64,000 nucleotides of DNA, taken from sequence record NC_070873.1; one strand, written 5' to 3'. The notes beneath the pieces are model-generated. The model was given only the letters and a program-made list of their open reading frames with translations. It was not told the DNA's origin and made no database searches. Shown here piece by piece: positions 36,755 through 61,152 of this stretch; the stretch's first letter is position 1, and each line of letters begins with the position of its first letter. Both the position numbers and the translations under genes were made by a program. The stretch comes from Escherichia phage St11Ph5.

Positions 36755-36777
36755 AATGGAAAGACTCTAGGAGCACT

Positions 36778-37071: not shown

Positions 37072-37077
37072 AATAGA

Positions 37078-37102
37078 AGCCCCTCATTAGAGGGGCTTTT
37101 TC
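37078..37102. terminator. bidirectional terminator between convergent plus-strand genes and the minus-strand vRNAP gene
   Basis: AGCCCCTC-ATTA-GAGGGGCT flanked by T-runs on both strands. Confidence 0.7.
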
Positions 37103-37104
37103 AT

Positions 37105-40100
37105 TTAGTTAGTTAGGTTGAGCCATGGGTTCAGGGTATGGGCACGTAAGCCTTGTCCTAAACCGAAGGAGTAACCGAGATTACCCTGTGCAGCAATGCT
37201 AAAGATGTTGTCCTGAATAGGAAGACCGACGTTACCAAACATGGTAGGAGTTGGAGCCAGCATAGCCATAGCAGCATGTACTGGGTTATTACGAATCATG
37301 GACACTGCAACTTTTGCAGAACGAATCTTAAAGTTGTAGAACCACATTAAACCAACACTTTCCATATATCCACGGAAGCGTCCTGGTAAACGGTCATAGT
37401 TAATGAACTCTTCCGTTACACGTCCTAGTGCTTCTTCACGAGTCTTGCCTTTACGCTGGGTCAGTTCATCATAGATGATTGCTTTAGCGATAAAGTCAGA
37501 GTACTCAACTGTCTTCTGGATACCCTGGAAGAGGGCAGTATCCTTAGTGATAAGTGCATAACGCCCTGCGTTACGTACAGACTTAGGCAGCTTATCAGCC
37601 AGCTTATCCATGTATTCGTGAATCTTACCTTCAGTAATCAGGATGTCATCACGCCCAATACCAGCATCTGCAATTGAAGAGAACTCACCAGCTTCTAACA
37701 GAGGCCAGATACTCAAACGTTTATGGCTATCCGTGATGGACTGAATCTCAGCCTTAAGTTTACGAATCTGGTTCGGGTTGGTAGCTGCACGTAATTCTGC
37801 TTCTGCATCTACCTGGCGCAGACGAGATTTTAGGTACTGATTAATCTCAGCAGTTTTCTGTGGAATGCTCTTAGCAATGTTCTTAACAGGTACACCACGA
37901 GCAACCATCTGGTAAAGGTTAGCCAGGAAGTTAACAGCAGGTACAACTACTGACTTAACTACAATCAGAGTCTTAGCTTCTTTAACTAAGTTCTGAACCA
38001 GATTCTCACCACCCATTACATACTTATAAGCACGGTTGCCAAATACACCCAGCATAGCTTTCTTGAAGGTATCCAGTGTTTCTGGGGACCAACGAGAATT
38101 ACCAGACCAGGCATCACCAACAGAAGCTGCACGATAACCAAGAGCATCATTGAGCATGTCACGACGTACCCATAACTCACCCGGACCAAACAGACTTTCT
38201 GCTTTCTGACGAGTTTCACTGTTCATCAGCTTAAGTGCATCAGCAGTTACTGGGTCCAGTTTAGAACCAAGAAGGTTAACGTACTGGGACTTATTAGAGG
38301 CAGACATCTTAATATCGTTCTCATACATGCTATGCAGATTCTCAATAAGCATGTCGTTGAAACGCTGAGCCTTAGCCTCTTCCACCTGACGTCCACGCCA
38401 TACACCAATCGCACGAGCAAGATGGTTCTCACCTTCGATGTGCTTCAGCATATTAGGGTCAATGGATTGCTCGTAAGCAACCACATTACCATTGGCATCA
38501 TATACAGGCAGCAATGGTTCATTACCACGTTCACCGCGAGCCAGTGCTTTAGTAACACGGTCCACGGAAGGCTTGTCAGTGATACGACCAGCTACCATGG
38601 TTCCCATAGTAAAGCCTGTACCAAGGTCTACGCCACCAGCAGTATTGCGAACGTTCTGCAGGATACCCTGTGAGAATGGAGCCTGTGCCTGTACTGGTGC
38701 AAAGTAGTAGCTACGTGCTGGCCCACGATTAGCAGAGCTACCCTGATAAGTGCCCAGTCGTACATAGGATTTCTCAATCAAATCAGCAAACTGACTATCT
38801 TCAGCAACAATCAGGTTAACACCCTGTTTAGTCTCACCAGGGATATATCCTTTGTACTGGTTCAAGGTTGCACGACTATCAGACTTAGCTTTAGCCATTT
38901 CGTCTTTACGCTGACCAACCAGGTAAGAAGTAGCAAAGTCCATACCTTCAATTTCTGTCTGAGCCAGTGAAGATAACATCTCACGGTCAGTCTTATTCAT
39001 TGCTTCCAGTGCATACAGAGTAATCAGTTTATCCAGCTGAGCTACATCTACAACAGAACGTGTAGTCTTACGTTCGCCCAGCAATCGAGAAATTGCAGTA
39101 GCATTACGCAGCAGGTTATTACCAACAGTACCATTAATCATGTACTGAGCCAGTTGCTTAGATTTACGGTTAATCAAAGACCAGTTACGTCCGGCTTGTT
39201 TCTGCAAATCTGCTTCCAGTTTATTAACCTCACGGTCAACAATCTTCTGGTCAGTTAGCAAGTCACGGATTTCAGCCAAAGACATAGTGTCACGCAGAAC
39301 AGCTAAGTCAGTTTTACCCATACCGGTATGCATTGCTTTCCACTCCTCATTAGTCAGCTTACGGCTGAACTTAGATGCGATAGTGGTAGGTAAATGTTCA
39401 CGGAACTGTTGACGGTCAGCCTGTACCTGTGCACGTACTGCTTTAATCAAATCATACACAGAAGCATTGCTCTTAGTACGTCCGATTATGTCATTAACCA
39501 GGTCATGGAAAGGTTGCCATACTTTACCCTGGTTCATTGCAGCCATAACACCTTCAGCTACGATTGAACCATTCTTCTCTGTAGCAATAGCAGCTATCAG
39601 TTGTGCAGCATGAGCAGCACCTTTGACCAATGGGTTCTTGGTATTAGCCGCAACTTCACGAGCACCTTCCAAAGCACGGGTAGACAGCACATCAATAGAA
39701 TCCACCAGATACTGGTTAGCACGGTCGATAGCATTACCAGTAGGAGTAGCAACGGAATCATAGAAGGATTCTGCATTAAGACTGGTCTGCATGATTGTCT
39801 GAGCCAGTGCATCCATACCTTCCTGTACGTTAGTGGCTTTAGTATCACCTGCAACACGAGCATTCAGACTAGCCATTGCAGCAGTACCGATGTTAGTCAG
39901 CATTGCGTCAACAGTATTGCCAGATTTCTTATCTGCTTTCATAACAGGAATATCAGCCAGCACCTTACGTACTTCTTCACTTACCATTGCCAGACCAACA
40001 AAGGTAGGCAGTAAGGAAGAACGACCATGTGCATCAAACTCAATGTTGTTAGCACCCATGATGGTATCGAACTTCTGCTGTGCATAGTAACGGTCAGCAG

Positions 40101-43100
40101 GGTTAGTACTATCTGGGTCAGCCATGAATACTTCGACGGTCAGGTTCTTAGTAACATGTGTGTAGTATTCCTGTGCACGAGCCAGGGCAGCTGGGTTAAT
40201 AGCAGCCTCAGTAGCTAGTGCAGCAACAATGTTAGTGAAGAGACGCTGTTCCTGCATATTCATGGTGAAGCCATGGGCCTGAACATCACGGGTTACTTTG
40301 GTTGCATTCACTACTGCATCAGAGAACTTACCTTTGCGAATTACTTGCTGTACTGGTTCTGAACCAATGTAGTTAGTAATTAGCTTATCGAAGGTTTTCC
40401 CTAATTCTTCCAGACGGGTATTGTTACCATATGCTTTGTTATGGAACAGGGTAGTGTCTTTGGCTACAGTAGCAGTAGGAGCTTGTCCACGCATTACTAC
40501 AGCAGAGTTAAACAGTAAGCCAGAGAACATATCATCTGCATTAGCCGGAGCTTTCTTACGTCCGAATACCAGACGCTTGATTGCTTCATATACAGCCTGA
40601 ACCATCGTTTTAAGTGCAGTGGTTTTCTTCTGCTTATTAATAAGTTCACGGTTAGTTAATCCCCAAGCCATGTACTCATTCAGTGCAGCAGCTTTAGCCA
40701 TTGCTGGTTCAATGAAGCCATTAGACAAGTGACCATTAATGGTATTCAGTGCATCAGCATATGCTTCACGTACTGCCGGAGATTCATCATAAACATCCAG
40801 AGCACGGAACTGGTTCATCAGGTCTTCAATATTCTGGACAGCTTCATTAGGAGTACCTTCGTAGTGAGCCAGTACAGATTCAAAAGTAGAAGCATGTACC
40901 AATTCATGAACCAGAGTCTCTAATGAAGGAGTAACTAAGTAGATGGTCTTATCTTCAAAGTTAGTCCAGCCATATGCATTACCTGCTTCAGCAGCCTCAA
41001 TATCTTCTGGTGCTGGGCGAGTAATATTCTTCTCAATAGCATAGGCATCCAGTTGAGAAGGTGTACCATAAACAACCTTATAGTCTTTAGCAGCAAGGGA
41101 TTTCTGTATTTCTTTCAATACTTCTTGCTGTTCAGGAGACATCTCTTTAGCCAATTTAGTAATAGCAGTATTAGACAGCAGACGTACACCAGATTTCAGT
41201 ACACGACCAACTTGTTCCATTGCTGGTACTTCTTTCACTGGTTCTGCTTTAGCAGCACGTACTGCATCACGACGCTTGTTTAATTCAGCATCAAACAGTT
41301 CGTTCAGCTTAGCTACTTGCTGGTCTACAGTTAAACCTTCCAGAGAGATTTTACCGTTGTTCACATAAGGAGCACCAACAGCAGCCATCTGGTCAACAGT
41401 GACCTGTACCTGGTCCATTACCTTGTGACGAATATCTACACCCAGGGCAATGTTACGCAGATTACGCTCAATTAATGCAATACCAGAATCTTTAATCATA
41501 GAAATTTTATAATCTCTATCACCATCTACTCTGGTAATCTGAGCACGTTGATCAAAGTCTAAAGCAGACTTCGCAATAGCATCTATTGCTGCATCGGACA
41601 GCTTATTTAAATCAACATTCTTAGCAAACTTAGAGAAAGACTCATAAACATTCTTGATAGGGTTACCCTGCCAGGAAGTATATACAGCCTCGTTAGCTTT
41701 ACGGCTTGCATCAGTAATGTCATTGATACCAATGTTCATACCATCAAAGATTTTCAGGGTATTCTTTGGAGCACCTTTCATAGTAGAAAGAGTCTGCATC
41801 ATCATGCCATCACCAGTACCGATGGTCATAAATGGAATACCTGCTACACCTGCCTGCGAAGGAGCATAGATGCTCATTGGCACACGCATACGGTCATCTA
41901 AGTTAGTAGCCAGTACTTGGTTAGCAACATCAGTATTTTCACTACCTGCAATGTAGAAAGTCTGGGAACCAGTCTCAATCATTGGAGCCAGTGGTGCTAA
42001 GCTATTCTGAATTTCATTCAGTTCTTTCTGTGTTAAGAAATCACCTTTCTTCCATGTTGGGTCTTTTTCTTTTTCTGCCAGTTTAGCCTGTACTGCCTGT
42101 TGGAACATATCCTGCAATACCAGAGATTGAATCTGGGTAGCCTTCTGTAAGTTCTCCGTAGATTGCATCAACCCTTCACCAACAGTGAATCGGATACTTT
42201 GTCTCATAGGCTCAACAAAGAAGTGCAGCATATTCTCTTGTAAGTTCTTAAGAGCATCCCCGGATACGGTAAACTCCCGGGGATCTAACTTACCAGTCAG
42301 AACACCATCTACTTCTTTAATGAATAACTTACCTTTACGCTTAGCTGGAATATTTCCAGTCAATGCTTTCATAGAAGTAAGGAAGGTATCCAGCATAGCC
42401 TGAGCATCGGCTTCAGATGCAGCCTCCTTACCAAACATCGCCATAGCTGGGGAAATGTTAGGGTCAACAGCACGGGCTTTTAGAACGTCGCTTAAGCGTT
42501 CATAGATGGTATCAGTAATTGCACTTACCATCTTGCCAGCAATACCACGTGCGCCAGAACCATAGATGGTAATGGTTAGTGGGTTTTTAGCGATACCACG
42601 TTTCAAGTCCAGAGTACCGTCTTCCTTAAGATTGAAGTCTTTAATGAACAAATCCATTAGCTTCTGGAGATGGTCCATCTGGTTTATAACAGGAATATTT
42701 TTACTATAAGCATTGCGTAATTCATTTAGATAGAATTGCAGACTATTAGTAGATGCTTCATACAGGTCAACACTGTCTTCCTGAGTATGATGCTCATTCA
42801 TGGTCTTACCGGCTTTACCGAAGAACAAACCACCTTTGGCAGTATTCTTAATCCAGTTTGGAGTGAACTTACCACCGGTCATTAATACCATTGCGTTGAT
42901 TGGACCGTTGGTTACACCATCGGCTTCAACGTACAGTGGGGTATTAAAGTTGGCACGGTCATCACTGTTAAGATAACGGGCATATTCCATAAGAGCCATA
43001 AGAGCTACAAAGGATTTATCATTACCAAGAGATGTTCTCAGAATATCCACTGCATCAGTAGGTAAGTATCCAGACTTATCAAACTCAACCATCATATCTA

Positions 43101-46100
43101 CAGCAGGTTTCAGCTTACCTTCCAGAGCTTTGGTAAGTTCTTCTGACATAGTTTCACGAGTCATTTTATGAACTTTGATACCTAATGCCTGAGCCAGTCC
43201 AAGCTGGAAGCCTGAGAAGTCTTCATTGTTCTGATTCGATAAATCCAGAGTAGCTTTAGTAGGTAAGATAGCCTCACGAACCAACTTAGCTGATTGAGGA
43301 TTATATTTACCTAACATCTGCATACGACCAACACGGGTCATATTGTAAGCATAGTGAATAGGCACAGTGGAAATGTCTTCACTCTGTGCTCTCACCTGTT
43401 CAATAACAGAGAACAATTGGTTGTAAGAATCCTCTACTGAACGGTTTTTACCTTCCAGAGATTTAGCATGGTTCTTATTAAGTAAATCCTTATCCAGAGT
43501 ACCAGCACCCATCAATTCGAGGATACGGTCTTTACCTAAAGCCTCATAGAACTGAACCATTGGGGTATGCACAAAGAACTCTGTAGCCTGCTCTGCTTTA
43601 AGGGCAGCTTTCTGTTCCGGAGTATTACGGACAGCAGGGTTACGTAACTGAGTATGAGCCACGGGAGGAATGTCATCACCGAAATACAGTTTCTCTACTG
43701 GTTCTACGAGGACAGCTTCCTCGATAGCAGTAGGGAATTTGTTAATAGCGTCGGTATCATCCAGCTTCTCAATGGTATACAGACCAATAGTCTTATTGGA
43801 TTCTGGGTCAATTTCAGACACATCCAGCATGGACTCTTTAACTTCACCCATTTCAATAAGGGAAGATAGAATCTCTGTAGCCATTGCCATCGGGATACCT
43901 TTGGTATAACCCAGTGGTGCATCAGCATTACGATTAAGTCCCCAGTAAGATTCAATCTTTTGAGCCAGTGAGTTAGTAGCTTCTACTAAGGTTTGTGCAT
44001 TCTCAAATTCTGCGAGGATACCTTCTGGTAACAAGGAAGCATTTACACCAGTAATTGCAGCCACATCCTGCATGTCTTTAATAGCAGCATTCTGTGTAGC
44101 AGTAAGTCGCCATTGCAGACCAGCAAGTACAGCAGTCTCTAACAATTGGTCATTGAACTTAAAGGTGTCTCCGTCTTTCTCTACGATATTAAGTAACTTA
44201 CCACCTACCCAACGGTTAGCTTCAGTACCTTCTGCAAAACGTTTACCAACGTTCTTGTTAGCAAGGAATTTAGTCAGACGGTCAGACAAAGTAGTCTTCA
44301 GAGTTTCACCAAACTCAAATAAGTCCTGGTAACGCTTAATCACATCACTTGTGAGAGCGTTATTTTCTTTTTGAGTAAATGCTTCAAAACGAGCAGCAGA
44401 AGACAGTGCTTTATTAACATCAGTTAAAGGAGATTCAGAACCAATGGTACGGGACTTAGGTTCTTCTGGCAGACTAAATGCTTTAAGGAACTGGTTCGGT
44501 GTCTTTTCATTGTTATAGACAGGGAACACTGCTTCCATTCCCGATAGAGGTTTACCACCAACAGTATAGTCTGCTTTCAGTTGAGCCAGTGATACTTCTT
44601 CTTTCTCAACGTTATTGGTATTAAGCCCAGATGTATCTACACCAATCTGAATCAGTGCATTGTTTGCTTCTACGAATGATTGAACAGTATTGAATTGTTC
44701 AGCAGTTAGCTTCTGATTATCAAACAATTGCAGAGATACGAACGGTTGCTCACTACCTTTATAGAAAGTAGAACGTACAGCACCAGTATCCAGAGACATG
44801 TCACGATAACCATCATGACCAAATACGTCAGACAGACTGATATGGTCGCCATTGGAACCAACAACAGTACCATCAGCGAATAGCCATGGACTATCTCTAC
44901 GGTCACCATACTTATTAAGAGTATCTTGTGAAATAGTATTCTCTTTCACATAAGAATCTCTTTCAGATTCAGTAGGCTGTTCAACGATATCCTGTTTTTC
45001 AGACTGGTTCTCAGGTTCTTTTACGGTTTGTGGTTTAGACTCTTTAATAGTAGGTTCTGTTTTAACAGCTTCACTAACAGAGGGTTTAGTCTGTACAGTA
45101 GGGGTAACTGGTTCCTGTTTTGTAACAGGAGCTTCATCAACCTGATTCACTGGTTCATTAGTCTGTTGGGATTGAGCAGCATCAAGATTGCCCTGACGGA
45201 ACTCTTTAACTACCTGGGCAGCAGGCTTGTTCAGACGTGAATCCAATGGGGTAACTTTCACATGAGAAACATTAAGCTCCGGGTAAGCCGTAGCAAGTGC
45301 GTTAGCAATATCAGCTACGGTCTTGGCTTCCAGTCCTACTTGCTGGGCAAACTTAACAGACTTGGTATCATACGGATTGACACCGAGGCCAGTACGACTA
45401 CGTACCCATTCACGCGAGGGAGTAAGAGCCTGATAATGGACAGACTTATTCTTATCCGCATTCCCAGAAATCAGATGCTCATTCAACGCTCCGACCTTAT
45501 TCTGCATGTGCTGGGCGAACTTCATAAAGTCGTCGAGATAAGCGGAAGCCAAATCGAAGTTACCAGAGTTGTACGCAGAACGAATGCGTTTAGCATGTTG
45601 CAACGCAGAGTACTGGCCTTCATTAGAACGAGACTCGTCGGTTTTAATCTGTTTACTAACAATGTCTTGAGGACGTAAGCCTAGTTCTTCTGCTTTAGCA
45701 TCAAATTCTCGTGCTCCTTGTAATAGAGCAGCAGCAGATTGCAGGGCAGCACGCTGACGATTCCCCAGTGTAATCTTACCTTCACTTGCATGTTTCAGAA
45801 CCATGTTCACTGAATCTGCATCCAGCACTTCTGGAGACATATCAGCAGCCATAGCAATGTTGTTTGCCTGAGCTTGGTTAGCTTCTTCAGTAGCTTTCAG
45901 TTTACCTGCTTCAGCCTGTTCCTGAATCATAGAATGGATGGCACGGAATGCACGGAGTACCTTCGGTGTATTCTGAACATTAGCCATCAGGCCAGAGAAT
46001 TGGTCAACAATATTAGCAGCAGGAGAACCCTGTTCCAGATTAGCCAGAGCACCAGGGTCACGGTTAATGAAGCTATCCATAGACATGATGTTGTCATACA

Positions 46101-47910
46101 TCTGGATTGCAGCTTCCATTTGAACGTTAGGGTCTTCGGCAGTATTAACCAGGTCAGCCATCTTCTGAATAGCTTCAACACGGTTAGTGGAACCAGAAAC
46201 AGCTTCACGGATTGCCGGGCTAGCTTGTTCCAGTTCTACTGGGTCAAACTTCATTGCCTGAGTTAAGTCAGCAGCATACTGAGTAGCAGCAGCTTTCTCT
46301 TCAGGAGAAATATCCATTGCATCTACTGCTTCCTGAACAGTTGCTTGAGCCTGTTCTGCCTGAGCAGTAGCTTCTTGTGCAGCAGCATTAACTGTAGCGT
46401 CTGATACAGGGGATGCTTGTTCATTTCGCTTAGCAACTTCTTCGCCACGCTGAACCAGGATGTTAGTAATAGGAGAAGCAGCTTTTGCTAATGCATTACC
46501 AGCCAGAGAAGCAGCAGCCATGGTAGTACGTACAGCAGGACCAACGGCAGCACCAGCAGCTTTAACAGTTGCACCAGGAGCTTGAGCAACTCCAGCAGAA
46601 CCGAAGCCATACAATGCACCAAGCCCGGTTTGTTCACCAACACCTTTAAGCAAATCACGCTTAGCATCTACATTACCTTGAATTGCCTTGTTCTGTGCAA
46701 GCTGACTTGTACCAGACTGGATACCTTCTTCTACAGTCTCACGCAGCATGTTAGAACCAGCACCAGCCAGTGAACCTACCTTAAGTGGATTAAGTTCAAA
46801 CTTGGATACCAGTGGACCAGTAAGAGCAGCAACCGGAGCAGTTAAGCCAGCAGCAGTAATACCTGTTTCAGATGCAGTTTGACGACGTGCTTCTTCAGGA
46901 GATAAACCATCTTTAATATGCTGTTGGTATACAGGGGATTTAGCAGCCAGTTCACTAAACGGCATTTCCATAATTTCATTAGCAGTTTGTTGGTATGCAC
47001 CACCAGCTTCCATACCACCAATTGCTATAGCAGGTGCAGCAACACGACCAGTAGCCAATGCAACCTGTGCAGGACGTGAACCTAATTCAGCAGCTAAGGT
47101 AATACCCTTAACAGCTTTATCCCCACCTACCATTACTTTACCGAGTGCGGATACACCACGAATCAATGGACCACCGGTAAAGAGAGAACCAACACCCTCA
47201 GCCAGACCATCAGTAGCAGCCATGCCATTGGACAAAGTGTTAACAACAGAATCGTAAGCATCACGTCCAATGCGAGACAGGGAAGCAACGAGTTCGCTTT
47301 CTCCTTTAGCAATATCCTGCTTATAGAGTTTCTCATTCTCCTGTGCAGATATTACGTTCTGGTTCTGTACTACATTACGACGAGCATTCAATGCATCAGA
47401 CTGTAGGTTATGTACACCTTTATTCAACCAGTCAAGACCGGAAGCAATGGATGCCCCGGCATTATCATTGACCAAGCCTGTGCCAAGAGCAGCAATGCCC
47501 CCAAGGGTATTAGCAACACCAAGACCAACACCAGAAAGGGTATCACCAAGTGCTTCACCATATGTACGACTCTTAGTTAAATCACGACGAACAGCATTAG
47601 CTGCATTGACACGAGCATTGAGAATGTCCATTCCTTGCTCATTGCCGTACTTGTTTATGATTTCAAGAGGAGAGGCGTTAGTAAAATCTGCCTGAATAGA
47701 ACCTGGGTCAAATGCACCAGCACCTAAGTTACCAGTACGACCTGCCTGCAATTGGTAGGCATTCTGAGGAGTTAATTGGAAAGGGTTTTGCCCTTGTTCA
47801 GCTTGTTTCCGAGAGGTTGCAGTAGAGACATCGACTTGCTTAGCAGTAGTGATGCTGTCTGCGAAACCTGCCAGACGGTCAAATGTTGACATAGCATGAT
47901 TCCTGTTCAA
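37105..47910 (-). CDS. giant virion-encapsidated RNA polymerase (N4 gp50-like vRNAP), 3601 aa
   Basis: Single uninterrupted 10.8-kb ORF; size and position (first gene of the minus-strand late block, convergent with the replication block) are hallmarks of N4-like phages. Confidence 0.8.
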   Translation of the reverse strand: MNRNHAMSTFDRLAGFADSITTAKQVDVSTATSRKQAEQGQNPFQLTPQNAYQLQAGRTGNLGAGAFDPGSIQADFTNASPLEIINKYGNEQGMDILNARVNAANAVRRDLTKSRTYGEALGDTLSGVGLGVANTLGGIAALGTGLVNDNAGASIASGLDWLNKGVHNLQSDALNARRNVVQNQNVISAQENEKLYKQDIAKGESELVASLSRIGRDAYDSVVNTLSNGMAATDGLAEGVGSLFTGGPLIRGVSALGKVMVGGDKAVKGITLAAELGSRPAQVALATGRVAAPAIAIGGMEAGGAYQQTANEIMEMPFSELAAKSPVYQQHIKDGLSPEEARRQTASETGITAAGLTAPVAALTGPLVSKFELNPLKVGSLAGAGSNMLRETVEEGIQSGTSQLAQNKAIQGNVDAKRDLLKGVGEQTGLGALYGFGSAGVAQAPGATVKAAGAAVGPAVRTTMAAASLAGNALAKAASPITNILVQRGEEVAKRNEQASPVSDATVNAAAQEATAQAEQAQATVQEAVDAMDISPEEKAAATQYAADLTQAMKFDPVELEQASPAIREAVSGSTNRVEAIQKMADLVNTAEDPNVQMEAAIQMYDNIMSMDSFINRDPGALANLEQGSPAANIVDQFSGLMANVQNTPKVLRAFRAIHSMIQEQAEAGKLKATEEANQAQANNIAMAADMSPEVLDADSVNMVLKHASEGKITLGNRQRAALQSAAALLQGAREFDAKAEELGLRPQDIVSKQIKTDESRSNEGQYSALQHAKRIRSAYNSGNFDLASAYLDDFMKFAQHMQNKVGALNEHLISGNADKNKSVHYQALTPSREWVRSRTGLGVNPYDTKSVKFAQQVGLEAKTVADIANALATAYPELNVSHVKVTPLDSRLNKPAAQVVKEFRQGNLDAAQSQQTNEPVNQVDEAPVTKQEPVTPTVQTKPSVSEAVKTEPTIKESKPQTVKEPENQSEKQDIVEQPTESERDSYVKENTISQDTLNKYGDRRDSPWLFADGTVVGSNGDHISLSDVFGHDGYRDMSLDTGAVRSTFYKGSEQPFVSLQLFDNQKLTAEQFNTVQSFVEANNALIQIGVDTSGLNTNNVEKEEVSLAQLKADYTVGGKPLSGMEAVFPVYNNEKTPNQFLKAFSLPEEPKSRTIGSESPLTDVNKALSSAARFEAFTQKENNALTSDVIKRYQDLFEFGETLKTTLSDRLTKFLANKNVGKRFAEGTEANRWVGGKLLNIVEKDGDTFKFNDQLLETAVLAGLQWRLTATQNAAIKDMQDVAAITGVNASLLPEGILAEFENAQTLVEATNSLAQKIESYWGLNRNADAPLGYTKGIPMAMATEILSSLIEMGEVKESMLDVSEIDPESNKTIGLYTIEKLDDTDAINKFPTAIEEAVLVEPVEKLYFGDDIPPVAHTQLRNPAVRNTPEQKAALKAEQATEFFVHTPMVQFYEALGKDRILELMGAGTLDKDLLNKNHAKSLEGKNRSVEDSYNQLFSVIEQVRAQSEDISTVPIHYAYNMTRVGRMQMLGKYNPQSAKLVREAILPTKATLDLSNQNNEDFSGFQLGLAQALGIKVHKMTRETMSEELTKALEGKLKPAVDMMVEFDKSGYLPTDAVDILRTSLGNDKSFVALMALMEYARYLNSDDRANFNTPLYVEADGVTNGPINAMVLMTGGKFTPNWIKNTAKGGLFFGKAGKTMNEHHTQEDSVDLYEASTNSLQFYLNELRNAYSKNIPVINQMDHLQKLMDLFIKDFNLKEDGTLDLKRGIAKNPLTITIYGSGARGIAGKMVSAITDTIYERLSDVLKARAVDPNISPAMAMFGKEAASEADAQAMLDTFLTSMKALTGNIPAKRKGKLFIKEVDGVLTGKLDPREFTVSGDALKNLQENMLHFFVEPMRQSIRFTVGEGLMQSTENLQKATQIQSLVLQDMFQQAVQAKLAEKEKDPTWKKGDFLTQKELNEIQNSLAPLAPMIETGSQTFYIAGSENTDVANQVLATNLDDRMRVPMSIYAPSQAGVAGIPFMTIGTGDGMMMQTLSTMKGAPKNTLKIFDGMNIGINDITDASRKANEAVYTSWQGNPIKNVYESFSKFAKNVDLNKLSDAAIDAIAKSALDFDQRAQITRVDGDRDYKISMIKDSGIALIERNLRNIALGVDIRHKVMDQVQVTVDQMAAVGAPYVNNGKISLEGLTVDQQVAKLNELFDAELNKRRDAVRAAKAEPVKEVPAMEQVGRVLKSGVRLLSNTAITKLAKEMSPEQQEVLKEIQKSLAAKDYKVVYGTPSQLDAYAIEKNITRPAPEDIEAAEAGNAYGWTNFEDKTIYLVTPSLETLVHELVHASTFESVLAHYEGTPNEAVQNIEDLMNQFRALDVYDESPAVREAYADALNTINGHLSNGFIEPAMAKAAALNEYMAWGLTNRELINKQKKTTALKTMVQAVYEAIKRLVFGRKKAPANADDMFSGLLFNSAVVMRGQAPTATVAKDTTLFHNKAYGNNTRLEELGKTFDKLITNYIGSEPVQQVIRKGKFSDAVVNATKVTRDVQAHGFTMNMQEQRLFTNIVAALATEAAINPAALARAQEYYTHVTKNLTVEVFMADPDSTNPADRYYAQQKFDTIMGANNIEFDAHGRSSLLPTFVGLAMVSEEVRKVLADIPVMKADKKSGNTVDAMLTNIGTAAMASLNARVAGDTKATNVQEGMDALAQTIMQTSLNAESFYDSVATPTGNAIDRANQYLVDSIDVLSTRALEGAREVAANTKNPLVKGAAHAAQLIAAIATEKNGSIVAEGVMAAMNQGKVWQPFHDLVNDIIGRTKSNASVYDLIKAVRAQVQADRQQFREHLPTTIASKFSRKLTNEEWKAMHTGMGKTDLAVLRDTMSLAEIRDLLTDQKIVDREVNKLEADLQKQAGRNWSLINRKSKQLAQYMINGTVGNNLLRNATAISRLLGERKTTRSVVDVAQLDKLITLYALEAMNKTDREMLSSLAQTEIEGMDFATSYLVGQRKDEMAKAKSDSRATLNQYKGYIPGETKQGVNLIVAEDSQFADLIEKSYVRLGTYQGSSANRGPARSYYFAPVQAQAPFSQGILQNVRNTAGGVDLGTGFTMGTMVAGRITDKPSVDRVTKALARGERGNEPLLPVYDANGNVVAYEQSIDPNMLKHIEGENHLARAIGVWRGRQVEEAKAQRFNDMLIENLHSMYENDIKMSASNKSQYVNLLGSKLDPVTADALKLMNSETRQKAESLFGPGELWVRRDMLNDALGYRAASVGDAWSGNSRWSPETLDTFKKAMLGVFGNRAYKYVMGGENLVQNLVKEAKTLIVVKSVVVPAVNFLANLYQMVARGVPVKNIAKSIPQKTAEINQYLKSRLRQVDAEAELRAATNPNQIRKLKAEIQSITDSHKRLSIWPLLEAGEFSSIADAGIGRDDILITEGKIHEYMDKLADKLPKSVRNAGRYALITKDTALFQGIQKTVEYSDFIAKAIIYDELTQRKGKTREEALGRVTEEFINYDRLPGRFRGYMESVGLMWFYNFKIRSAKVAVSMIRNNPVHAAMAMLAPTPTMFGNVGLPIQDNIFSIAAQGNLGYSFGLGQGLRAHTLNPWLNLTN

Positions 47911-47995: not shown

Positions 47996-49942
47996 TTATC
48001 GAGGTTGCATATAGGGAGGTAAACCCTCTGCTAATTTTCGATAACGTTTAGCTCGTTCTTCATCTTCACGACTACGCTCACGTTCTACTGAAGCATTAGA
48101 ACGGAAGTTCTGTGGAACCAGGTTTCCTTGGTCAGCTACCACAGTATTGACAGCAGCATCTAGTGCAGCTCGTGCTCTTGCTAACTCAGCCTCACGAGCA
48201 GGAATAGTAGCAGCAAGTCCACTTTGCCCAGCAGCTACACGACGACGGGTATCAGCAAGCAAGGCTTCTGCTTGTGTTACCTGGTTCTGAGCATTTTCAA
48301 TATTACCCTGTACCTGAGTAAGAACATTATCACGAGCAGTAGCTTCAATACCTTCCCCACGTCGTACCGAACGTGCTAGTTCTCTGGCAACGGTATCATC
48401 AATACGAATACCACCACCACCCTCATTGGAGATGAATGGATTAAGTGCATCAAGTGCTCGACTAATCATACCTTCCGGTACGTTGGTAGTAGACTGCTTA
48501 AGAATCTCAGCAGCTACAGCAGGAGACTGACCGGATTCCTGCATAACATCATTCAGTCGAGCTATCATCCATCCTTTCTCAGAACCTTTAAAAGCATCCT
48601 TAAGAAGACGGTCTGCTACTTCACCAATGGTAGAGTTGTCACGTAATGCACGAGCATAGTTAGCAGTAATAGTTCCAGTATTATCTTCAGACTGGCGAGC
48701 AGCAACTGTATTGCCTGCCATGTTTGAGACTACTTGCTGGGTCTGTAACTGTTCAAGAGGTGCACCTACTTCTGCCTGTGCAATTAACTGACGTGCTTCA
48801 CTCCATGGCATATCCTTATAACCACCAACACCCAAGTCAGGCAATGCAGCCCAAGTCTTGGAAAGGTTACCACTCTTACGGTCATTGAAGATTGCTTCAG
48901 CTATTTTGTCCTGTACTTCAGGAGTCATTTGCTGATTACGCCAATCTGAACCAAGCACCTTAGGTGCATAGTCTTCCAGAGTAGCTTTATTAATCTGAAA
49001 TGCTCCTACAGGGGAATGACCTTGTGACGGGTTATTAATCATAGTTTGTTGATGATTAGTAACCTCACCCAGTGTCATTTCAGTAATAGGCTTATCAGTA
49101 GCAGCAAAGGTATATGTTGCATCATAAGGAGAACCAGAACGAGTACCAGCAGTTCCCGGAGCAGGGCCAGAAGGAGACACAGCATAAGTACCCGGGAATC
49201 TCTGGTTCACACCTCGCATGATTGCAGCACGTACACCAGGAGAAGCATTCTGCATAGCAGACTCTGCCAGTGTAAGAGCATCCATAGGTGTAGAAGCACT
49301 ACGGAAAATGTCTGTCAATATACCGGATGCAGCTTGTGAATCAGCATCATTACGTTGAGCCACACCCAAATCAAAACGGTTCTGTGCTTGGTTAATAGCC
49401 TGACCACCTTGCCCTTGAAGACGACTCAGCATATCCAGTTGTTGATCAGCAGGGAGTGTAGACAGTGCCTCTCGGGTTTGTCCCAATGCAGAATTAATAC
49501 GGTTCTGGTCACCGGACTGATAAGCCTCAGACAGCAGTCGAATAGCTGGAGAAGCATTATCCAGTGCAGAGTTAACATCCTTTAAGCGACCAAAGTTATA
49601 AGCATTGAAGTCATTGATTCCCTGTTGACCTTGCTGAGTCAGAAGTGTACCTGCTCGCTCATCCAGATTCTGAAGGGTATGTTGGTTTACCAATGAAGGG
49701 TCAACCCCCTGAAACAGTGCACCAGATGCCAGAGCATTACGATACTCAGTAGGGTCTTGATACTGCATAGCATTCATCATGACGGCATTGCCAGCCTCCT
49801 GCTTGGCAGCGTTCTGGAAGTTACCCAGTGCATCACTTAAGCCGGAGGTGGCGCTACCAATCATGCTTCCAAATGTGCGAATGCTGTCACCAACTCCGGA
49901 GAAGTTAGGTGCATCAACATTACGCCATGTAATTTGAGCCAT
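47996..49942 (-). CDS. virion-associated protein (648 aa), possible cell-wall-acting domain
   Basis: Large late ORF beside vRNAP; GAFQINKATLEDYAP loosely resembles the lytic transglycosylase GLMQ region (weak). Confidence 0.55.
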   Translation of the reverse strand: MAQITWRNVDAPNFSGVGDSIRTFGSMIGSATSGLSDALGNFQNAAKQEAGNAVMMNAMQYQDPTEYRNALASGALFQGVDPSLVNQHTLQNLDERAGTLLTQQGQQGINDFNAYNFGRLKDVNSALDNASPAIRLLSEAYQSGDQNRINSALGQTREALSTLPADQQLDMLSRLQGQGGQAINQAQNRFDLGVAQRNDADSQAASGILTDIFRSASTPMDALTLAESAMQNASPGVRAAIMRGVNQRFPGTYAVSPSGPAPGTAGTRSGSPYDATYTFAATDKPITEMTLGEVTNHQQTMINNPSQGHSPVGAFQINKATLEDYAPKVLGSDWRNQQMTPEVQDKIAEAIFNDRKSGNLSKTWAALPDLGVGGYKDMPWSEARQLIAQAEVGAPLEQLQTQQVVSNMAGNTVAARQSEDNTGTITANYARALRDNSTIGEVADRLLKDAFKGSEKGWMIARLNDVMQESGQSPAVAAEILKQSTTNVPEGMISRALDALNPFISNEGGGGIRIDDTVARELARSVRRGEGIEATARDNVLTQVQGNIENAQNQVTQAEALLADTRRRVAAGQSGLAATIPAREAELARARAALDAAVNTVVADQGNLVPQNFRSNASVERERSREDEERAKRYRKLAEGLPPYMQPR

Positions 49943-49954
49943 GATGGTTTCCTA

Positions 49955-50398
49955 TTAACGAGTTAGCTTATTAGCTGCAATGTAAGCATCAGCTGAAGAC
50001 TGGTCACGGTTCTCTGCTGTAGCACGACTACGAGCACGGTCTTCTAGTGCAGTGTTATAAGACTTAATCTGGTTATTCAGGTTAGTGTTAGTAACACTCT
50101 TAGCAAAGTTCAACTGGTCTTTGGCTAACTTATTAGCCTGGAAACCACTGTAGATATTAGCTAATGAACCAAGTGCACCAAGCCCTAACTGAAAGGTAGG
50201 TACGTTCATGCCCAACTGATTAGCTGAACCAGACATGAGCGAAGTAGGGGTAGATGCACCCAAATTAGTACCCATACCAATAGCTGCACCTGGGTTATAG
50301 TTCATAGCCGAGGTATTAAAGTTCTGATTGTTATTAGACATCCAAGACATAGCAGCTGGCTGTGGGGTTTGGTTGCCTGTTAAGAATGACAAATCCAT
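49955..50398 (-). CDS. hypothetical virion protein (147 aa)
   Basis: Late-module ORF, Asn/Ser/Gly-rich. Confidence 0.5.
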   Translation of the reverse strand: MDLSFLTGNQTPQPAAMSWMSNNNQNFNTSAMNYNPGAAIGMGTNLGASTPTSLMSGSANQLGMNVPTFQLGLGALGSLANIYSGFQANKLAKDQLNFAKSVTNTNLNNQIKSYNTALEDRARSRATAENRDQSSADAYIAANKLTR

Positions 50399-50411
50399 GG
50401 GGATTCTCCTG

Positions 50412-53066
50412 TTAAACTAGGTCAGTATTAAGGGTCATGTCAGAGTAGTTGCCAATCATGTCTAGAGACAAGTCAGCTATATCTGAACCAGTCATAAGAG
50501 TACGTGATAAGAATGAATCCAGTGACTCCATTGACACGAATTGCATTGGGTCAATTACACCCTGCCCAGCAGTACCAAACATTTCTTCATACTGCTTATT
50601 GATTGCCATCATATCAGTATTGTACTGCTGCATTACTTTCTCTGCTTTCTGAATAGTAGCAGCCGTAGATGCATTAATATACTGACTAATACCATTACCT
50701 ACCGAACTGGTAAGCTGCATGATGTTTTGGGCATTCATCATCTCACCTGCTAGGGTGGATAAGGATGTACCAGTAGACAAAGCAGTACCAACATTCATAG
50801 CTACCAATGAAGCAATAGCAGCAATGATAAAACCTAGCTTATCTCCGAACAGTGCAGTGGATACTTTTGTAGTAATGGATATCAGAATCATTGCAGCAAT
50901 AGCATTTGCTACAGCACCAACTATTACAGCAGCTAATCCAACAAAACCAAGAGAAGCACCAACTGCACCATATGCTCCAAGTATACCTGCACCACCAGCA
51001 CCCATAGTGAATACGGATACAACGACAGCAACTACAACAACCACAATCTTAAAAGCAGATGTTTGGTACCACTTCTGCTTAACCTTCTTATATGAGTTCA
51101 TCACTAAGTAGGAACAGGCAGTGGATAACTGAGTACTTCGAACCAGTGACATTGAACGGTAGATGTTAGTATGTAGTGGAATAATGAATCCACTCTCCTC
51201 TGCATCACCCATTGCTTCGGCAACATCAATGTGCACTGACTTATTCTTATATACCCTGTTATTGTGGTTTAGACCCAGTACCCTGAGTTTACGGTAAGTG
51301 TTATTACCATCCTGCCAAAGCAACTCATACTCCTGCATCGAATAGAATGTATATGTTACTTCAAGTTTCTTAGCAGAACCGGAGTTAGAAGCTGTCCTTA
51401 TGTTCTTGCGAGTAAGAGTTATATCTCCTGCATACCTGGCTCGAAGTTGTCCTTGCTTAGCACCAGACCATGCTTGTCCTGAGTGAGTAGTTTCGGATAC
51501 ATAGTTCCAGCCAATAGTCATGTCATATTTGTAATGCTTATTACTATGTACCCTAAACTCTCGCTTAGGTATGACTGGATATTCTGGAAGTGGCGGGGGA
51601 GTTCCAATAGTATGCCCCTCAGTTCTGTTCCACCATTCTACATATACATCAACTGCATCATTAGCTGCCTGATACCCTGCAATCACTGCCTCCAAAGTTG
51701 GGTAGGTTGGGTCAGGAGGGAATGCTTCAGTAGCCATCTGAAAGAAGCGATAGATGTATTCCTTGGCAGTATCTTCAGGAGTATTAAGAGATACACCGAA
51801 TGTTCCATAAATGTACTGAATATCACCTATATCATCATTCTTCTTAAGCTCTGTCACTACCTTATCAATTTTCCCACCAGTAGCTTTATAAAGGGCTTTC
51901 TTACAGTGTGGGTAGATTGGGTCATTCTCTACCCATTGTTTATCATTCCTGATTGGAATGAATGGATAGAACCGGTTATCAGTAGCCTCAGTTTCAAACA
52001 GTGAATCTAGTGCAACGTTACCAGAGTTCTGCTTATAGATAAGCATCTTAGGCGTACCAACAGCAGTCATCTCAGTATCAGTACGAGTAGTCTGAGATGA
52101 GTACTTACGAACCAGTGTCTCTGTGGTTGTAGTAATTGTATCGGTACGAGTAACACCACCACCTATATCAACTACATTGGTAGTCACAACAGTACTGGAC
52201 TGAATCTCACCAAACTTTTTATGAGTCATTACTCTGTCAGATACAACTACAGTCACATCATCAGGTTTCTCAGTGAATCCTCTACGGTAAACCTTAACGT
52301 AAGAGTTCCAGTTATCCACACTTGGCTCAGTGACAGTACTATCTTCATCTGGTCTGCCATCAGAGTAAACAGAATGAGTATGTATAGTCTTAATAAGGTT
52401 GGTTGTATTAGCCGTCGTATCGCTTGAAATGGTAGTCCATAACAAAGTGGAGGGTAAGTCATCCTCATCATCATAGACAGTAGTCGGTCCTACTACAGGT
52501 GGATTAATAGAAGGGGATTTGTAAAAAGAGTAATCAGCATAGAGATACAAAGCACCTGGTTCAAAGTTAGTAGGTGTGAATTTAATAGTAGAACCTCCAT
52601 CCAAGGAGGTCATAGTAATTTCATTGATATCTTCATCAATGTCGATGTCGAATCGTTCCATGATTCGACTTGGAGCATTCTCATAAAGATACTGGTCACA
52701 CCATTGTTCAAAGTCAGCAAAGCCAATCTCTGCTGCCTGAACGTAGACAGACTCTCCAGCAGGTGGTGTAATTTGACCCTCTATAACAGTAGGGTCAATC
52801 TTAGCCAGTACACCTAATGAAGAACCAGCCATGCCAACTTCTGAATCATAGTGATTCTTACTCCAGCTGGAGAACAGTCGCATACGAATACCCGGCCCAT
52901 TCAGATAACTATCAGAGATAGTGTCTGCCATAGTGAATCCTGTATTTGAAACGATATTGCCTATGACTACAGTCTTCATATAGTTAGGGCGTTTATGTAT
53001 ATCCCCTGCCATGTTATAGACAGAGGATGCTACGTATACTTTGGTCTTCCCACTGAATAAGCCCAT
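50412..53066 (-). CDS. virion internal/ejection-type protein with C-terminal multi-helix hydrophobic region (884 aa)
   Basis: About 130 aa of consecutive Gly/Ala/Val-rich hydrophobic helices near the C-terminus. Confidence 0.55.
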   Translation of the reverse strand: MGLFSGKTKVYVASSVYNMAGDIHKRPNYMKTVVIGNIVSNTGFTMADTISDSYLNGPGIRMRLFSSWSKNHYDSEVGMAGSSLGVLAKIDPTVIEGQITPPAGESVYVQAAEIGFADFEQWCDQYLYENAPSRIMERFDIDIDEDINEITMTSLDGGSTIKFTPTNFEPGALYLYADYSFYKSPSINPPVVGPTTVYDDEDDLPSTLLWTTISSDTTANTTNLIKTIHTHSVYSDGRPDEDSTVTEPSVDNWNSYVKVYRRGFTEKPDDVTVVVSDRVMTHKKFGEIQSSTVVTTNVVDIGGGVTRTDTITTTTETLVRKYSSQTTRTDTEMTAVGTPKMLIYKQNSGNVALDSLFETEATDNRFYPFIPIRNDKQWVENDPIYPHCKKALYKATGGKIDKVVTELKKNDDIGDIQYIYGTFGVSLNTPEDTAKEYIYRFFQMATEAFPPDPTYPTLEAVIAGYQAANDAVDVYVEWWNRTEGHTIGTPPPLPEYPVIPKREFRVHSNKHYKYDMTIGWNYVSETTHSGQAWSGAKQGQLRARYAGDITLTRKNIRTASNSGSAKKLEVTYTFYSMQEYELLWQDGNNTYRKLRVLGLNHNNRVYKNKSVHIDVAEAMGDAEESGFIIPLHTNIYRSMSLVRSTQLSTACSYLVMNSYKKVKQKWYQTSAFKIVVVVVAVVVSVFTMGAGGAGILGAYGAVGASLGFVGLAAVIVGAVANAIAAMILISITTKVSTALFGDKLGFIIAAIASLVAMNVGTALSTGTSLSTLAGEMMNAQNIMQLTSSVGNGISQYINASTAATIQKAEKVMQQYNTDMMAINKQYEEMFGTAGQGVIDPMQFVSMESLDSFLSRTLMTGSDIADLSLDMIGNYSDMTLNTDLV

Positions 53067-53067
53067 A

Positions 53068-53910
53068 TTAGTTCAGCCCGTTGTTAGACTTCAGCTTGGT
53101 CAGAATGGTATCAATACTTGCGTTAGTGAAGCCATTCGGTGGGTTCAAGCCTTCGTCAATAGTCTTCTGAGTAATCCATGCATCAGTAAACAACTTAGAT
53201 GCTTTAACCTCTGCATCACGTTGGTAAGAAGTAATCTGTTGAGAGTACAACTCTTTCTGTTTACCTACAGAACCCTTAACTACTGCACCATCAGTACGAG
53301 TGTCCAGCGTCTGTGCACGTTGTGCTTCTGTCTGCTCAGTAAGCAATTTAAGCTGTTGGGGTAACATCTGACTAGCATTAAACAATGCAGCACAGTATGT
53401 CTCAGACTCAGTAGCAATCTTTAACTTAGTAAGTGCATATTCACTCTTAGCAGACAATGCCTGAATCTTAGCTAGTACATACTGAGCTTTAGAGGTAGCC
53501 AATGTGACACGAGCAGTAACTGCTTGAATCTGTGCCAGTGCAGCAGCCCAGTATGCCTGGTCACGACCAAGTAAGAACTGAACAGCATTACTCATGCAAG
53601 ATTCCATCATAGCAATGTATGCTTTGGTATATTCACCACCTGTAATGCGGTTAGCCTTAAACTCAGCTTTAAGGTGATTGTGAGCAGATTCCATTAATGC
53701 ATCAAACGTACCACTACCACCTACTTCACGGGTAGTAAGGGATTCATTGGTTATTTTGGTAATGGCTCCAAAGATTGGAGAATCATCCCCACCTGGGATA
53801 TCCCATTCGGGACCGGACATATCAATATCAGGGAGGGTAAAGTCATCACCCTTAGTCAACTCTTCAAGGAGTCGGTTAGCTTCTACCTCAGCAGAACAAG
53901 ACATAATCAT
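53068..53910 (-). CDS. virion structural protein (280 aa)
   Basis: Late-module ORF with coiled-coil-like Ala/Gln-rich segment. Confidence 0.5.
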
Positions 53911-59779: not shown

Positions 59780-60286
59780 TTATTCCTGTTCAAAAAGTTT
59801 ACGGTCAGCCTGAATCTGTTTACCCAACTCAATTAGTTGGCTGTCACGGAGTCTAACAGTTGCCCGGAGTTCTTCAACCAAACGTCTGCCTTCTTCAAGA
59901 CTGTTGTCGAGTCTGGCTGCATGGCTTGCAAGACTTCTGCACTCAAAGGTTCCGGATTCGGCTTGACGTTTATATACCGATGCTCGTCTTTCAGACTGTT
60001 GCATCCGGCTGTCGTAATCACTGCTAACGCGAGCAAGCTCGCTTGCGTAATTACTCTCAGCCGTCTGCAACCGGGAAGTGAGTAACCCGACTTCATAACT
60101 ATGGTTTCTTTGGAGAGCATTGTATTTGTCCTGTAATTTTTGTGTTGCCTTTTGGTCTTCGACCTTTTGGGCATCCCACTTCTTTTGAACAGTAGACTGT
60201 CCATTGGAGTTACCCCAAAAGTAAATGGTGGCCCCAAGGACCACCACCAGAAGATAAGGCCAACCTTTAGAGATTAGCATCTTCAT
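59780..60286 (-). CDS. i-spanin (Rz-like): N-terminal TM helix plus periplasmic coiled coil
   Basis: [26 protein letters not shown] then charged coiled-coil region; GGAGG 6 nt upstream of the ATG at 60286; directly downstream of the endolysin. Confidence 0.55.
59833..60096 (-). CDS. o-spanin (Rz1-like) lipoprotein embedded in the +1 frame of the i-spanin gene
   Basis: Signal peptide with lipobox-like ITTAGC and a Pro-rich mature region, entirely inside the Rz-like gene. Confidence 0.45.
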   Translation of the reverse strand: MKSGYSLPGCRRLRVITQASLLALAVITTAGCNSLKDEHRYINVKPNPEPLSAEVLQAMQPDSTTVLKKADVWLKNSGQLLDSVTAN

Positions 60287-60902
60287 TACATGCCTCCAGT
60301 GGCACATTGCCTATTCGGTTAGCTACCCAACCATACGTAAAGTCTGGCATGTTTAATGAGGTGTAGTGGTTCAGTTGTTTGGCATCAAGTAACTTAATCA
60401 TTACCTGACATGCTGCAACTTTGCCTCGTTTTTTCTGTAATGCTTTATATGCATTAACAGTACTTGTACCGACTTTACCATCAACCTGTATTTTAGGGTA
60501 GTCTTTGCCGTCACGGGACATTTCATTAAGAGATAACTGCAACCACTTAGCAGGACGGGTTACACCAGTGTTAACACCAGCATCAACCAGCTTGTGTGTT
60601 ACAGCAGGAGATATATCAGCAAAGGCTACGAAGTTAGGCTTAAGTACGTAGTCATCAATGTATATCTCAGCAGCCATCTCTTTAGACAAACCTTTCATAG
60701 AACCATCCCAACCATACTCAGTAGCCAGAACTTCTTTATGAGATTTAGCTACCGATTGGGTAATTCCATGGTTAGTTTCCCCACCTGGGTCACGAGGATT
60801 GTTTACGTAACCCCCTTCCATATAGAACACTGCCCCCAGGATAGCAGCGACAACTCCTCCCACTGCACCACCTTTCGCAGCAAGTTTTTGTTTAGCTTTC
60901 AT
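60267..60902 (-). CDS. endolysin, GH108-type N-acetylmuramidase with N-terminal SAR-like segment and PG-binding-like C-terminus (211 aa)
   Basis: EGGYVNNPRDPGGETNHGIT (GH108 EGGY motif); Gly/Ala-rich weakly hydrophobic N-terminus. Confidence 0.75.
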   Translation of the reverse strand: MKAKQKLAAKGGAVGGVVAAILGAVFYMEGGYVNNPRDPGGETNHGITQSVAKSHKEVLATEYGWDGSMKGLSKEMAAEIYIDDYVLKPNFVAFADISPAVTHKLVDAGVNTGVTRPAKWLQLSLNEMSRDGKDYPKIQVDGKVGTSTVNAYKALQKKRGKVAACQVMIKLLDAKQLNHYTSLNMPDFTYGWVANRIGNVPLEACNEDANL

Positions 60903-61152
60903 GTGAATCTTCCTTTGGTCGGAAACGTATTAATCTGCCTATGATATTTAAGGCAAACAGTGCGATTGCAATATTGGAACCATGAGGAATGTCTTCCAGG
61001 ATGTGTCGAGGTAATCCTGTCAGCATTGGTTGGATAATATCTATGGCAGAAAACATAATTAACCCAAGCGTACTAATCTGAATGGATGCCCACTTCCAGC
61101 ATCTTTTCCAGTTAGGTACTAACTCTACCTTTCTATTTAACCTGCGAACCAT
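60892..61152 (-). CDS. holin-like small membrane protein (2 TM; 86 aa; start moved to internal ATG)
   Basis: Two hydrophobic helices; GGGAG 8 nt upstream of the ATG at 61152; immediately upstream of the SAR endolysin. Confidence 0.4.
   Translation of the reverse strand: MVRRLNRKVELVPNWKRCWKWASIQISTLGLIMFSAIDIIQPMLTGLPRHILEDIPHGSNIAIALFALNIIGRLIRFRPKEDSHES

Follow-up and report, generated by a model that had tools for sequence, protein, structure and literature searches.

In DNA of Escherichia phage St11Ph5 (sequence record NC_070873.1; the window, meaning the whole stretch analyzed, is 64,000 nucleotides (nt) long), the region at positions 47996-53066 is, by homology to the solved structures of phage N4, a Schitoviridae ejection cassette together with its tail gate. 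The 648-amino-acid (aa) homologue of the N4 tunnel protein gp51 encoded there was found to carry, at residues ~268-395, a domain that is very probably homologous to lambda lysozyme and shares the lysozyme fold. The best explanation of the whole, to which we assign a probability of roughly 50%, is an N4-type cassette in which this lysozyme-like gp51 domain opens the cell wall locally. The sequence-only reading that preceded this analysis had proposed two large proteins of the region, of 648 and 884 aa, as candidate ejection machinery. Both open reading frames (ORFs) were as described there (47996-49942 and 50412-53066, both on the minus strand), and for the 648-aa protein the proposal held, as it is a homologue of N4 gp51, a virion protein and channel, a reading that is already published.

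47996..49942, minus strand: gp51 homologue of 648 aa ('66 kDa protein'), periplasmic-tunnel ejection protein (PDB 11mn_A, E 2.7e-115; PHROG 6126)
48758..49141, minus strand: lambda-lysozyme-like (lysozyme superfamily) domain, residues 268-395, without the canonical motif I
48968..49006, minus strand: GAFQINKATLEDY, residues 313-325 of the 648-aa protein, equivalent to lambda R G65-Y77 (GRYQLLSRWWDAY), from the translation and the hhalign register
48770..48772, minus strand: codon of Glu391, the one acidic residue that is invariant in the domain (151/151 representatives), located where its last helix ends

Membership of the 648-aa protein in the gp51 family extended over its full length (PHROG 6126, E 7e-303 over residues 1-648). 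In N4, gp50, gp51 and gp52 together make up the ejection cassette (Bellis et al., Nat Commun 2026, PMC13434306). That study reported that the gp51 density around the portal vanishes in empty particles, and proposed that gp51, which touches the portal in the virion, forms the periplasmic tunnel and binds the N-terminal domain of gp50 (gp50-NTD); a channel-forming construct of residues 1-359 assembled as a decamer ordered only at residues 52-255. Its authors described gp51 as an all-helical tunnel protein in which no peptidoglycan hydrolase was apparent, and suggested that such activity is provided 'in trans'. The abstract of that paper (gp51 as outer-membrane complex, gp52 as tunnel) contradicts its own text and Fig. 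6c (gp52 as outer-membrane complex, gp51 as tunnel), and the roles used here were taken from the text and figures. Hardies et al. (PMC4819975) had assigned N4 gp51 as a homologue of T7 gp15/IVP-C and described internal virion proteins as variably hosting tail lysozyme domains. We found that N4 gp51 carries the same lysozyme-like domain (~265-392), including the invariant Glu (AETG); the disorder past residue 255 in the N4 construct may arise because the 1-359 construct stops inside this domain.

The relationship to lambda lysozyme was indicated by several comparisons. A profile of the gp51 domain built from 151 representatives was aligned with the lambda R family by hhalign at a probability of 93.5% (E 2.3e-7, 97 columns), placing residues 268-378 on lambda 28-138, so that a peptidoglycan-hydrolase-type fold of the lambda-lysozyme-like kind was detected in the 648-aa protein. 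The lambda R profile was shallow (effective number of sequences (Neff) 1.5), its homologue search having given only relatives at ≥85% identity, and the similarity is therefore underestimated. An hmmsearch against lambda R alone returned three colinear pieces (E 1.8e-4 in a database of one), and the AlphaFold2 (AF2) model of the domain had a predicted local distance difference test (pLDDT) score of 94.6 and a predicted template-modeling (pTM) score of 0.88. Among the families compared, the fold was closest to lambda R, that is, to the lambda lysozyme family (GH104/family-4). Members P0207 and P0153 of the domain family also matched PHROG 90 'endolysin', the group that lambda R matches at 3.9e-62, at ~1e-6.

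A protein of Agrobacterium jumbo myophage Atu_ph07 (490 kb, not N4-like) linked the two families, since ASV44767.1 (865 aa), found by tblastn, matched both the gp51-domain hidden Markov model (HMM) at 8e-18 and lambda R at 5e-12 by BLASTP. This protein shares the gp51-type insertion 'LTGMTLGEI' but, unlike the gp51 domain, keeps motif I (LDLIGKTEGTD) and the longer lambda helix-4 region. It is annotated as 'hypothetical protein', its canonical lambda-type lysozyme domain lies at ~504-645, its best match was PHROG 430 'baseplate hub subunit and tail lysozyme', and its C-terminal part (…TNAHVVG…) is a possible peptidase. Compared with lambda R (GH104, family-4 lytic transglycosylase; PDB 1AM7/3D3D), the gp51 domain lacks the N-terminal helix with Glu19 and ~13 residues of helix 4, and has an extra helix (291-302). 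Whereas lambda R is a free endolysin, the gp51 domain is embedded in a 648-aa ejected structural protein and has its invariant Glu on the last helix.

The sequence-only reading had likened one segment of the 648-aa protein to the GLMQ region of lytic transglycosylases. The segment (GAFQI) does lie inside a true lysozyme-fold domain; the comparison with the SLT 'GLMQ' family was sub-threshold and did not stand. Weak matches to PF06737 or PF01464 were obtained for 17/39 family members, and no other family was recurrent. Membership in SLT/GH23 (PF01464, defined by the motifs E-S, GLMQ and AYNxG) was rejected, as the protein from the window gave no match and 5/39 relatives matched with a best E of 0.011; the two relatives inspected scored 12.0-12.2 bits, against a gathering threshold (GA) of 21.3, over profile positions 34-83 only. 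Rpf-type membership (PF06737, with its N-terminal CESGG catalytic helix) was likewise rejected, with native relatives reaching at most 16.8 bits over profile positions 22-71, against a gathering threshold of 27. Searches of the PDB sequences with the domain by phmmer and profile hmmsearch returned N4 gp51 only, the remainder being noise (GH66 dextranase, KIX domains).

Conservation was concentrated on the positions with which lambda lysozyme contacts its sugar substrate. The following equivalences are in the hhalign register, with the lambda contacts taken from PMC6916166.

Lambda Q68: Q316, 99% conserved
Lambda Y77: Y325, Y/F in 83%
Lambda Q91/D92: Q344/D345, 99% for Q344 and 96% acidic for D345
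Lambda W124: W364, 99%
Lambda F135: Y375, Y/F in 85%

Two residues of the segment GAFQINKATLEDY correspond to Gln68 and Tyr77, which contact sugar in lambda; G313, with which the segment starts, was 100% conserved, and G313, Q316, Q344 and W364 all stood at 99-100%. The family-4 motifs that follow motif I were present as GxYQ, (S/T)PxxQD and WAxLP, in our own reading of the alignment (four family-4 motifs are cited in PMC4656821). With residues 262-400 as the query, exhaustive searching by HMMER yielded 509 clusters at 50% identity, nearly all of them proteins of 550-900 aa with a similarly central match. In a 91-sequence full-length alignment, the domain was the best-conserved part of gp51, with a top-residue frequency of 0.60 versus 0.25-0.51 elsewhere. 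It occurred in 138 phage records, and in 40 sampled from these the protein was named 'virion structural protein', 'structural protein', '66 kDa protein' or 'hypothetical protein'; the source names of the homologues read only 'hypothetical protein'.

High conservation alone leaves the partner of the domain unspecified, and the fold could be vestigial, reused for protein contacts such as decamer oligomerization, docking of the N-terminal domain of the virion RNA polymerase (vRNAP) or portal packing, with no role at the wall. The portal contact of N4 gp51 and its proposed binding of gp50-NTD would agree with such reuse. We consider this quite improbable, as the conserved positions are the sugar-contacting residues of lambda and not a new surface, and as the domain recurs in other architectures (alone with a hydrophobic tail, or at the C terminus of unrelated long proteins) and stands next to a canonical-motif version in a myophage. 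This recurrence indicated a portable enzymatic or binding module. The other architectures were seen among P0153 (261 aa), P0207 (256 aa), P0246 (852 aa) and P0252 (848 aa). In the short proteins with the domain, YDVVYG is the very beginning of the sequence, and a hydrophobic segment lies at the C terminus in one of them; the domain thus stands without a motif-I helix. The long proteins, with the domain at the extreme C terminus, stop just after the E-x-G motif, and the two kinds of boundary together indicated that the Glu helix is part of the domain and the motif-I helix is not.

In family-4 transglycosylases, the essential Glu (lambda Glu19) belongs to motif I and stands where the N-terminal helix ends (PMC4656821, PMC6916166). 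For the gp51 domain, which lacks this motif, attention fell on E391, which is followed by S/V/T-G, most commonly in the form 'ESGG'. The colinear residue of lambda, Glu148, is Glu in only 66/82 close relatives, and the Atu_ph07 protein, in which motif I is kept (TEGTD), has no Glu at the E391 position. When the profile was permuted so that the last helix preceded the core, the hhalign match extended to lambda 13-27 and brought E391 onto Glu19, the score rising from 47.9 to 51.5, with 47.6 for a reversed-helix control. Permuted constructs reached 21-25 bits on PF06737 (E 3e-5 to 5e-4, gathering threshold 27), the sequence of the window itself giving 17.7 bits and reversed-helix controls 0-16 bits. 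These results are suggestive of a relocated catalytic acid on the last helix, which would have arisen by circular permutation or by migration of the residue. E391 is the candidate for this acid, and catalysis through it would be plausible; that it actually takes place is a tentative proposal, which we hold at a little short of an even chance. Two other acidic residues were considered and rejected, namely E288 (ITEMT), which is Q/S/T in most relatives, and E293 (GEV), a position occupied by E in 56%, D in 24% and Q in 14%. In T4 lysozyme, a late helix abuts the catalytic Glu11 via an Arg145 salt bridge.

Several observations weigh against a wall-opening hydrolase. The native sequences fell below every Pfam/NCBIfam threshold, and the native proteins and the isolated domain matched no lysozyme or transglycosylase family of those collections even at E≤10. 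Foldseek with a first, weaker model found no match. In the PDB, none of the DEV chains was matched by the domain profile at E≤10; gp72 of Pseudomonas phage DEV therefore appears to be without the domain, which would not be universal in Schitoviridae ejectosomes. Motif I (lambda Glu19, 'SEGT') is missing, the alignments beginning at about lambda residue 28; the position aligned to the catalytic Glu is Pro/Gly/Ala, and the 'EGT' site reads 'PGT'. The PHROG 90 matches of family members similarly begin ~25 profile positions past the start of lambda, and the 30 columns upstream of the domain are a G/A/S/P linker with at most 12% acidic residues per column and no conserved acid. The gain on permutation against lambda R was small (+3.6), and the constructs for the Pfam permutation were designed after the ESGG resemblance had been noticed.

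The domain could then be catalytically dead, a peptidoglycan-binding collar that anchors or positions the tunnel, with cleavage performed by host lytic transglycosylases or a co-packaged enzyme. Loss of motif I with its catalytic Glu in 151/151 representatives, with the groove equivalents of lambda Q68, Y77, W124 and F135 kept, is what such a collar would show. The N4 authors saw no hydrolase signature and proposed activity in trans (PMC13434306), and a paper on the A-1(L) hub names a lysozyme domain, yet the lytic activity it reports is confined to the other two domains. However, a binder has no obvious need of an invariant helix-end Glu followed by Ser/Val-Gly, the catalytic-motif pattern of related transglycosylases, and one acidic residue suffices for lambda-type, SLT-type and Rpf-type enzymes. 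We therefore regard the dead collar as rather unlikely, and local cleavage with E391 as the acid as the single most likely outcome, ahead of non-catalytic anchoring, while still only a possibility. Engagement of the peptidoglycan by the domain, in whichever manner, is likely.

The genes around the gp51 homologue point to the same N4-type system. The locus consists of three head-to-tail ORFs on the minus strand, encoding 648, 147 and 884 aa; the 147-aa ORF between the two large ones (49955-50398) had been passed over by the sequence-only reading.

49955..50398, minus strand: gp52 homologue of 147 aa ('16.5 kDa protein'), outer-membrane pore-former (PDB 9yf4_OA; DEV 8vxq_A; PHROG 2646)
50412..53066, minus strand: gp53 homologue of 884 aa, plug of the tail-gating complex (PDB 9yft_FA; DEV plug 9ze4_M; PHROG 2220)
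50757..51071, minus strand: Gly/Ala/Val-rich hydrophobic segment, residues 666-770 of the plug (Kyte-Doolittle, composition, translation)
53068..53910, minus strand: gp54 homologue of 280 aa, tail tube sealed by the plug (PDB 9lc0_K/9yf4 'Gp54', E 6e-125; 9d80_C, E 3e-149)
37105..47910, minus strand: vRNAP of 3601 aa (gp50 homologue), cargo and third ejection protein (Pfam)

The 280-aa and 884-aa ORFs are separated by 1 nt, the gaps among the three ORFs are both 12-13 nt, and the 3601-aa ORF comes next after the 648-aa ORF. The resulting order gp54-gp53-gp52-gp51-gp50 is the same as in N4 (NC_008720), and the position of the gp51 homologue between the gp52 homologue and the vRNAP gene, all on one strand, likewise matches N4. 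Global identity to the N4 proteins was 46% for gp51, 70% for gp52, 56% for gp53 and 72% for gp54, and the vRNAP contained the Pfam families N4_RNAP_helical (E 4e-99), vRNAP_dom and vRNAP_plug. The DNA of the segment was 93.6% identical to that of Escherichia phage vB_EcoP_ShWW44 and 93.2% to that of ECBP1, with Gamaleyavirus records among the matches. By these similarities the phage is an N4-like podophage of the Schitoviridae, of ECBP1/Gamaleyavirus type, and the three ORFs are almost certainly the homologues of gp51, gp52 and gp53. What the genes are, and their parts in ejection and plugging, had already been published from N4; the N4 proteins (PDB 11mn, 9yf4, 9yft) are orthologues in the same gene order, although St11Ph5 belongs to a different, ECBP1/Gamaleyavirus-like lineage at genus level.

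The 147-aa protein matched N4 gp52 (9yf4_OA, E 7.5e-44) and DEV gp73 (8vxq_A, E 2.4e-4) as well as PHROG 2646, and its position between gp53 and gp51 completed the assignment to the gp52 family. N4 gp52 has its N-termini in the tail lumen of full virions, forms channels in bilayers and was proposed as the outer-membrane complex (PMC13434306). Residues 27-92 of the gp52 homologue gave a sub-threshold match to Pfam Ntox22 'Bacterial toxin 22' (E 9.8e-5, 22.9 bits, gathering threshold 25), which is probably compositional, the N-terminus being rich in N, Q, G and S.

The 884-aa protein belonged to the tail-plug family, with homology to N4 gp53 over its full length (9yft_FA, E 0 over residues 1-883) that included the hydrophobic-knot segments (N4 29-56 and 670-716) and approached identity across 660-770; it matched PHROG 2220 and the DEV plug 9ze4_M (E 5.5e-18). 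In N4, gp53 is a single-copy tail plug in which residues 29-56 and 670-716 are the 'hydrophobic knot' corking the gp54 tube, a dodecamer; its last ~160 residues are unresolved in the lumen, and the protein, fastened to a single gp65 subunit, is still found on particles that have emptied (PMC13434306). The protein had previously been described as ending in about 130 residues of hydrophobic helices. A Gly/Ala/Val-rich stretch does exist, at residues 666-770 (105 aa; 49% G/A/V, 74% G/A/V/I/L/M/F, 4 charged residues), with 19-residue Kyte-Doolittle windows in the protein of up to 2.57; it is not terminal, because a polar tail of 114 residues (19% G/A/V) comes after it. The N4 knot residues 670-716 correspond to the first half of this stretch.

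From these helices the earlier proposal had derived a trans-envelope conduit, in which they would enter host membranes and form part of the channel. Residues 666-770 are as hydrophobic as transmembrane segments, and since the N4 knot is resolved at 670-716 only, with the next ~160 residues unresolved in the lumen, a membrane-active role after release could be imagined. However, the N4 plug is single-copy, lies mostly outside the tube, is tethered to one gp65 sheath subunit and stays on emptied particles; a channel for a 3601-aa protein would require an oligomer, and the pore and tunnel roles were assigned experimentally to gp52 and gp51. A conduit made by the 884-aa protein is thus very improbable, and the counterpart of N4 gp53 is better read as the plug.

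By analogy with N4, receptor binding would displace the gp53-type plug (a step shown or proposed for N4), whose hydrophobic segment, in a single copy, would cork the gp54 tail tube until then. Copies of the gp52 homologue waiting in the tail lumen would leave and insert into the outer membrane as a pore, and the gp51 homologue, stored around the portal, would be expelled next to assemble the periplasmic tunnel (a decamer in N4), through which the 3601-aa vRNAP and the DNA could then pass. The lysozyme-like domain follows directly after the solved channel segment (N4 52-255), roughly mid-protein, and given this position the domains would plausibly stand at mid-periplasm. There, a ring of domains might refold and engage the peptidoglycan around the nascent tunnel, most likely by local cleavage of glycan strands similar to that by the lytic-transglycosylase domain of T7 gp16. 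In this scheme, the one catalytic acid would be the invariant Glu391 of the C-terminal helix, taking over from the N-terminal 'EGT' helix of lambda lysozyme that was lost. In its fullest form, the proposal that the missing N4-like wall-opening enzyme is built into the tunnel protein, motif-I-less, with its acid re-created at Glu391, in ~10 copies ringing the tunnel and active only after ejection and refolding, is a speculative one that we put forward with some reserve.

The wall could also be breached by an ordinary endolysin, or not at all if the tunnel used natural pores, leaving the gp51 domain irrelevant to wall passage. The 'in trans' suggestion of the N4 paper (PMC13434306) would be in line with this, as would a separate GH108 protein found elsewhere in the window adjoining a small DUF7940 gene.

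60267-61218, minus strand (GH108 gene 60267-60902): GH108 + PG_binding_3 protein of 211 aa, beside a DUF7940 protein

The position of the GH108 gene resembles a lysis cassette, however, and nothing here puts its product in virions; an external enzyme would also leave unexplained why the gp51 domain is so strongly conserved across 509 clusters. We consider this explanation improbable and retain the gp51 domain as the candidate for wall opening. By analogy with N4, the GH108 and DUF7940 neighborhood would be a putative lysis cassette. The endolysin of N4 itself is an N-acetylmuramidase of a family other than GH108, and the endolysin type in this phage would therefore differ from that of N4. A scan of the vRNAP, which might likewise have carried a muralytic domain, detected no family of lysozymes or transglycosylases.

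Similar arrangements are known in other podophages, as T7 gp16, with a lytic transglycosylase at its N terminus, and phiKMV gp36, with a lysozyme at its C terminus, also place a muralytic-type module on an ejection protein, by which the wall is opened locally. In the gp51 homologue, in contrast, the domain is central and not terminal, its carrier is the tunnel protein and not an inner-membrane protein, and its activity is a prediction. The T7 gp16 domain belongs to the SLT/GH23 sub-family of the fold, unlike the lambda-type domain described here. In Pseudomonas phage DEV (PDB 8vxq, 9ze4), the functional counterparts are gp72 as the periplasmic tunnel, gp73 as the outer-membrane pore and gp74 as the plug; sequence similarity persists for the gp52 and gp53 homologues, while the DEV tunnel protein appears to lack the lysozyme-like domain.

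In the literature and annotations covered, no earlier mention was found of N4 gp51 containing a lysozyme or transglycosylase domain, coverage of journals being incomplete and an earlier notice possible. Hardies 2016 (PMC4819975) treated gp51 as an IVP-C homologue only, and Iyer 2017 described lysozyme fusions on some N4-like RNA polymerases and not on gp51. The domain in gp51 is thus apparently unreported, and apparently new as a motif-I-less lambda-type fold set centrally in a tunnel protein. It may be the wall-opening activity that the 2026 N4 study (PMC13434306) did not find apparent, and as a conserved lysozyme-fold domain it offers a concrete candidate for wall opening that can be tested by mutation. 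Its presence in N4 and in no fewer than 138 phages of known sequence, among them therapeutic-type ones infecting Escherichia, Klebsiella, Achromobacter, Stenotrophomonas and Burkholderia, gives the question a wider bearing. If E391 is catalytic, the active site of a lysozyme-superfamily member would have been relocated; if the domain is inactive, it would still likely be a peptidoglycan-anchoring collar for a transient trans-envelope channel.

Three further observations were made in the window. A 635-aa protein at 61683-63590 on the minus strand contained a pectate-lyase-like/RHGA domain (E 1.5e-11) and is probably not an N4-type gp65/gp66 but a depolymerase of a tailspike or appendage. The vRNAP ORF begins at a TTG start (47890-47910, minus strand; MNRNHAMSTFDR…), and translation may actually begin at an ATG six codons further on (MSTFDR…), which would give a protein of 3595 aa. 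The cumulative GC skew peaked near 38 kb (~36000-40000), and the examined genes beyond 37 kb all lie on the minus strand.

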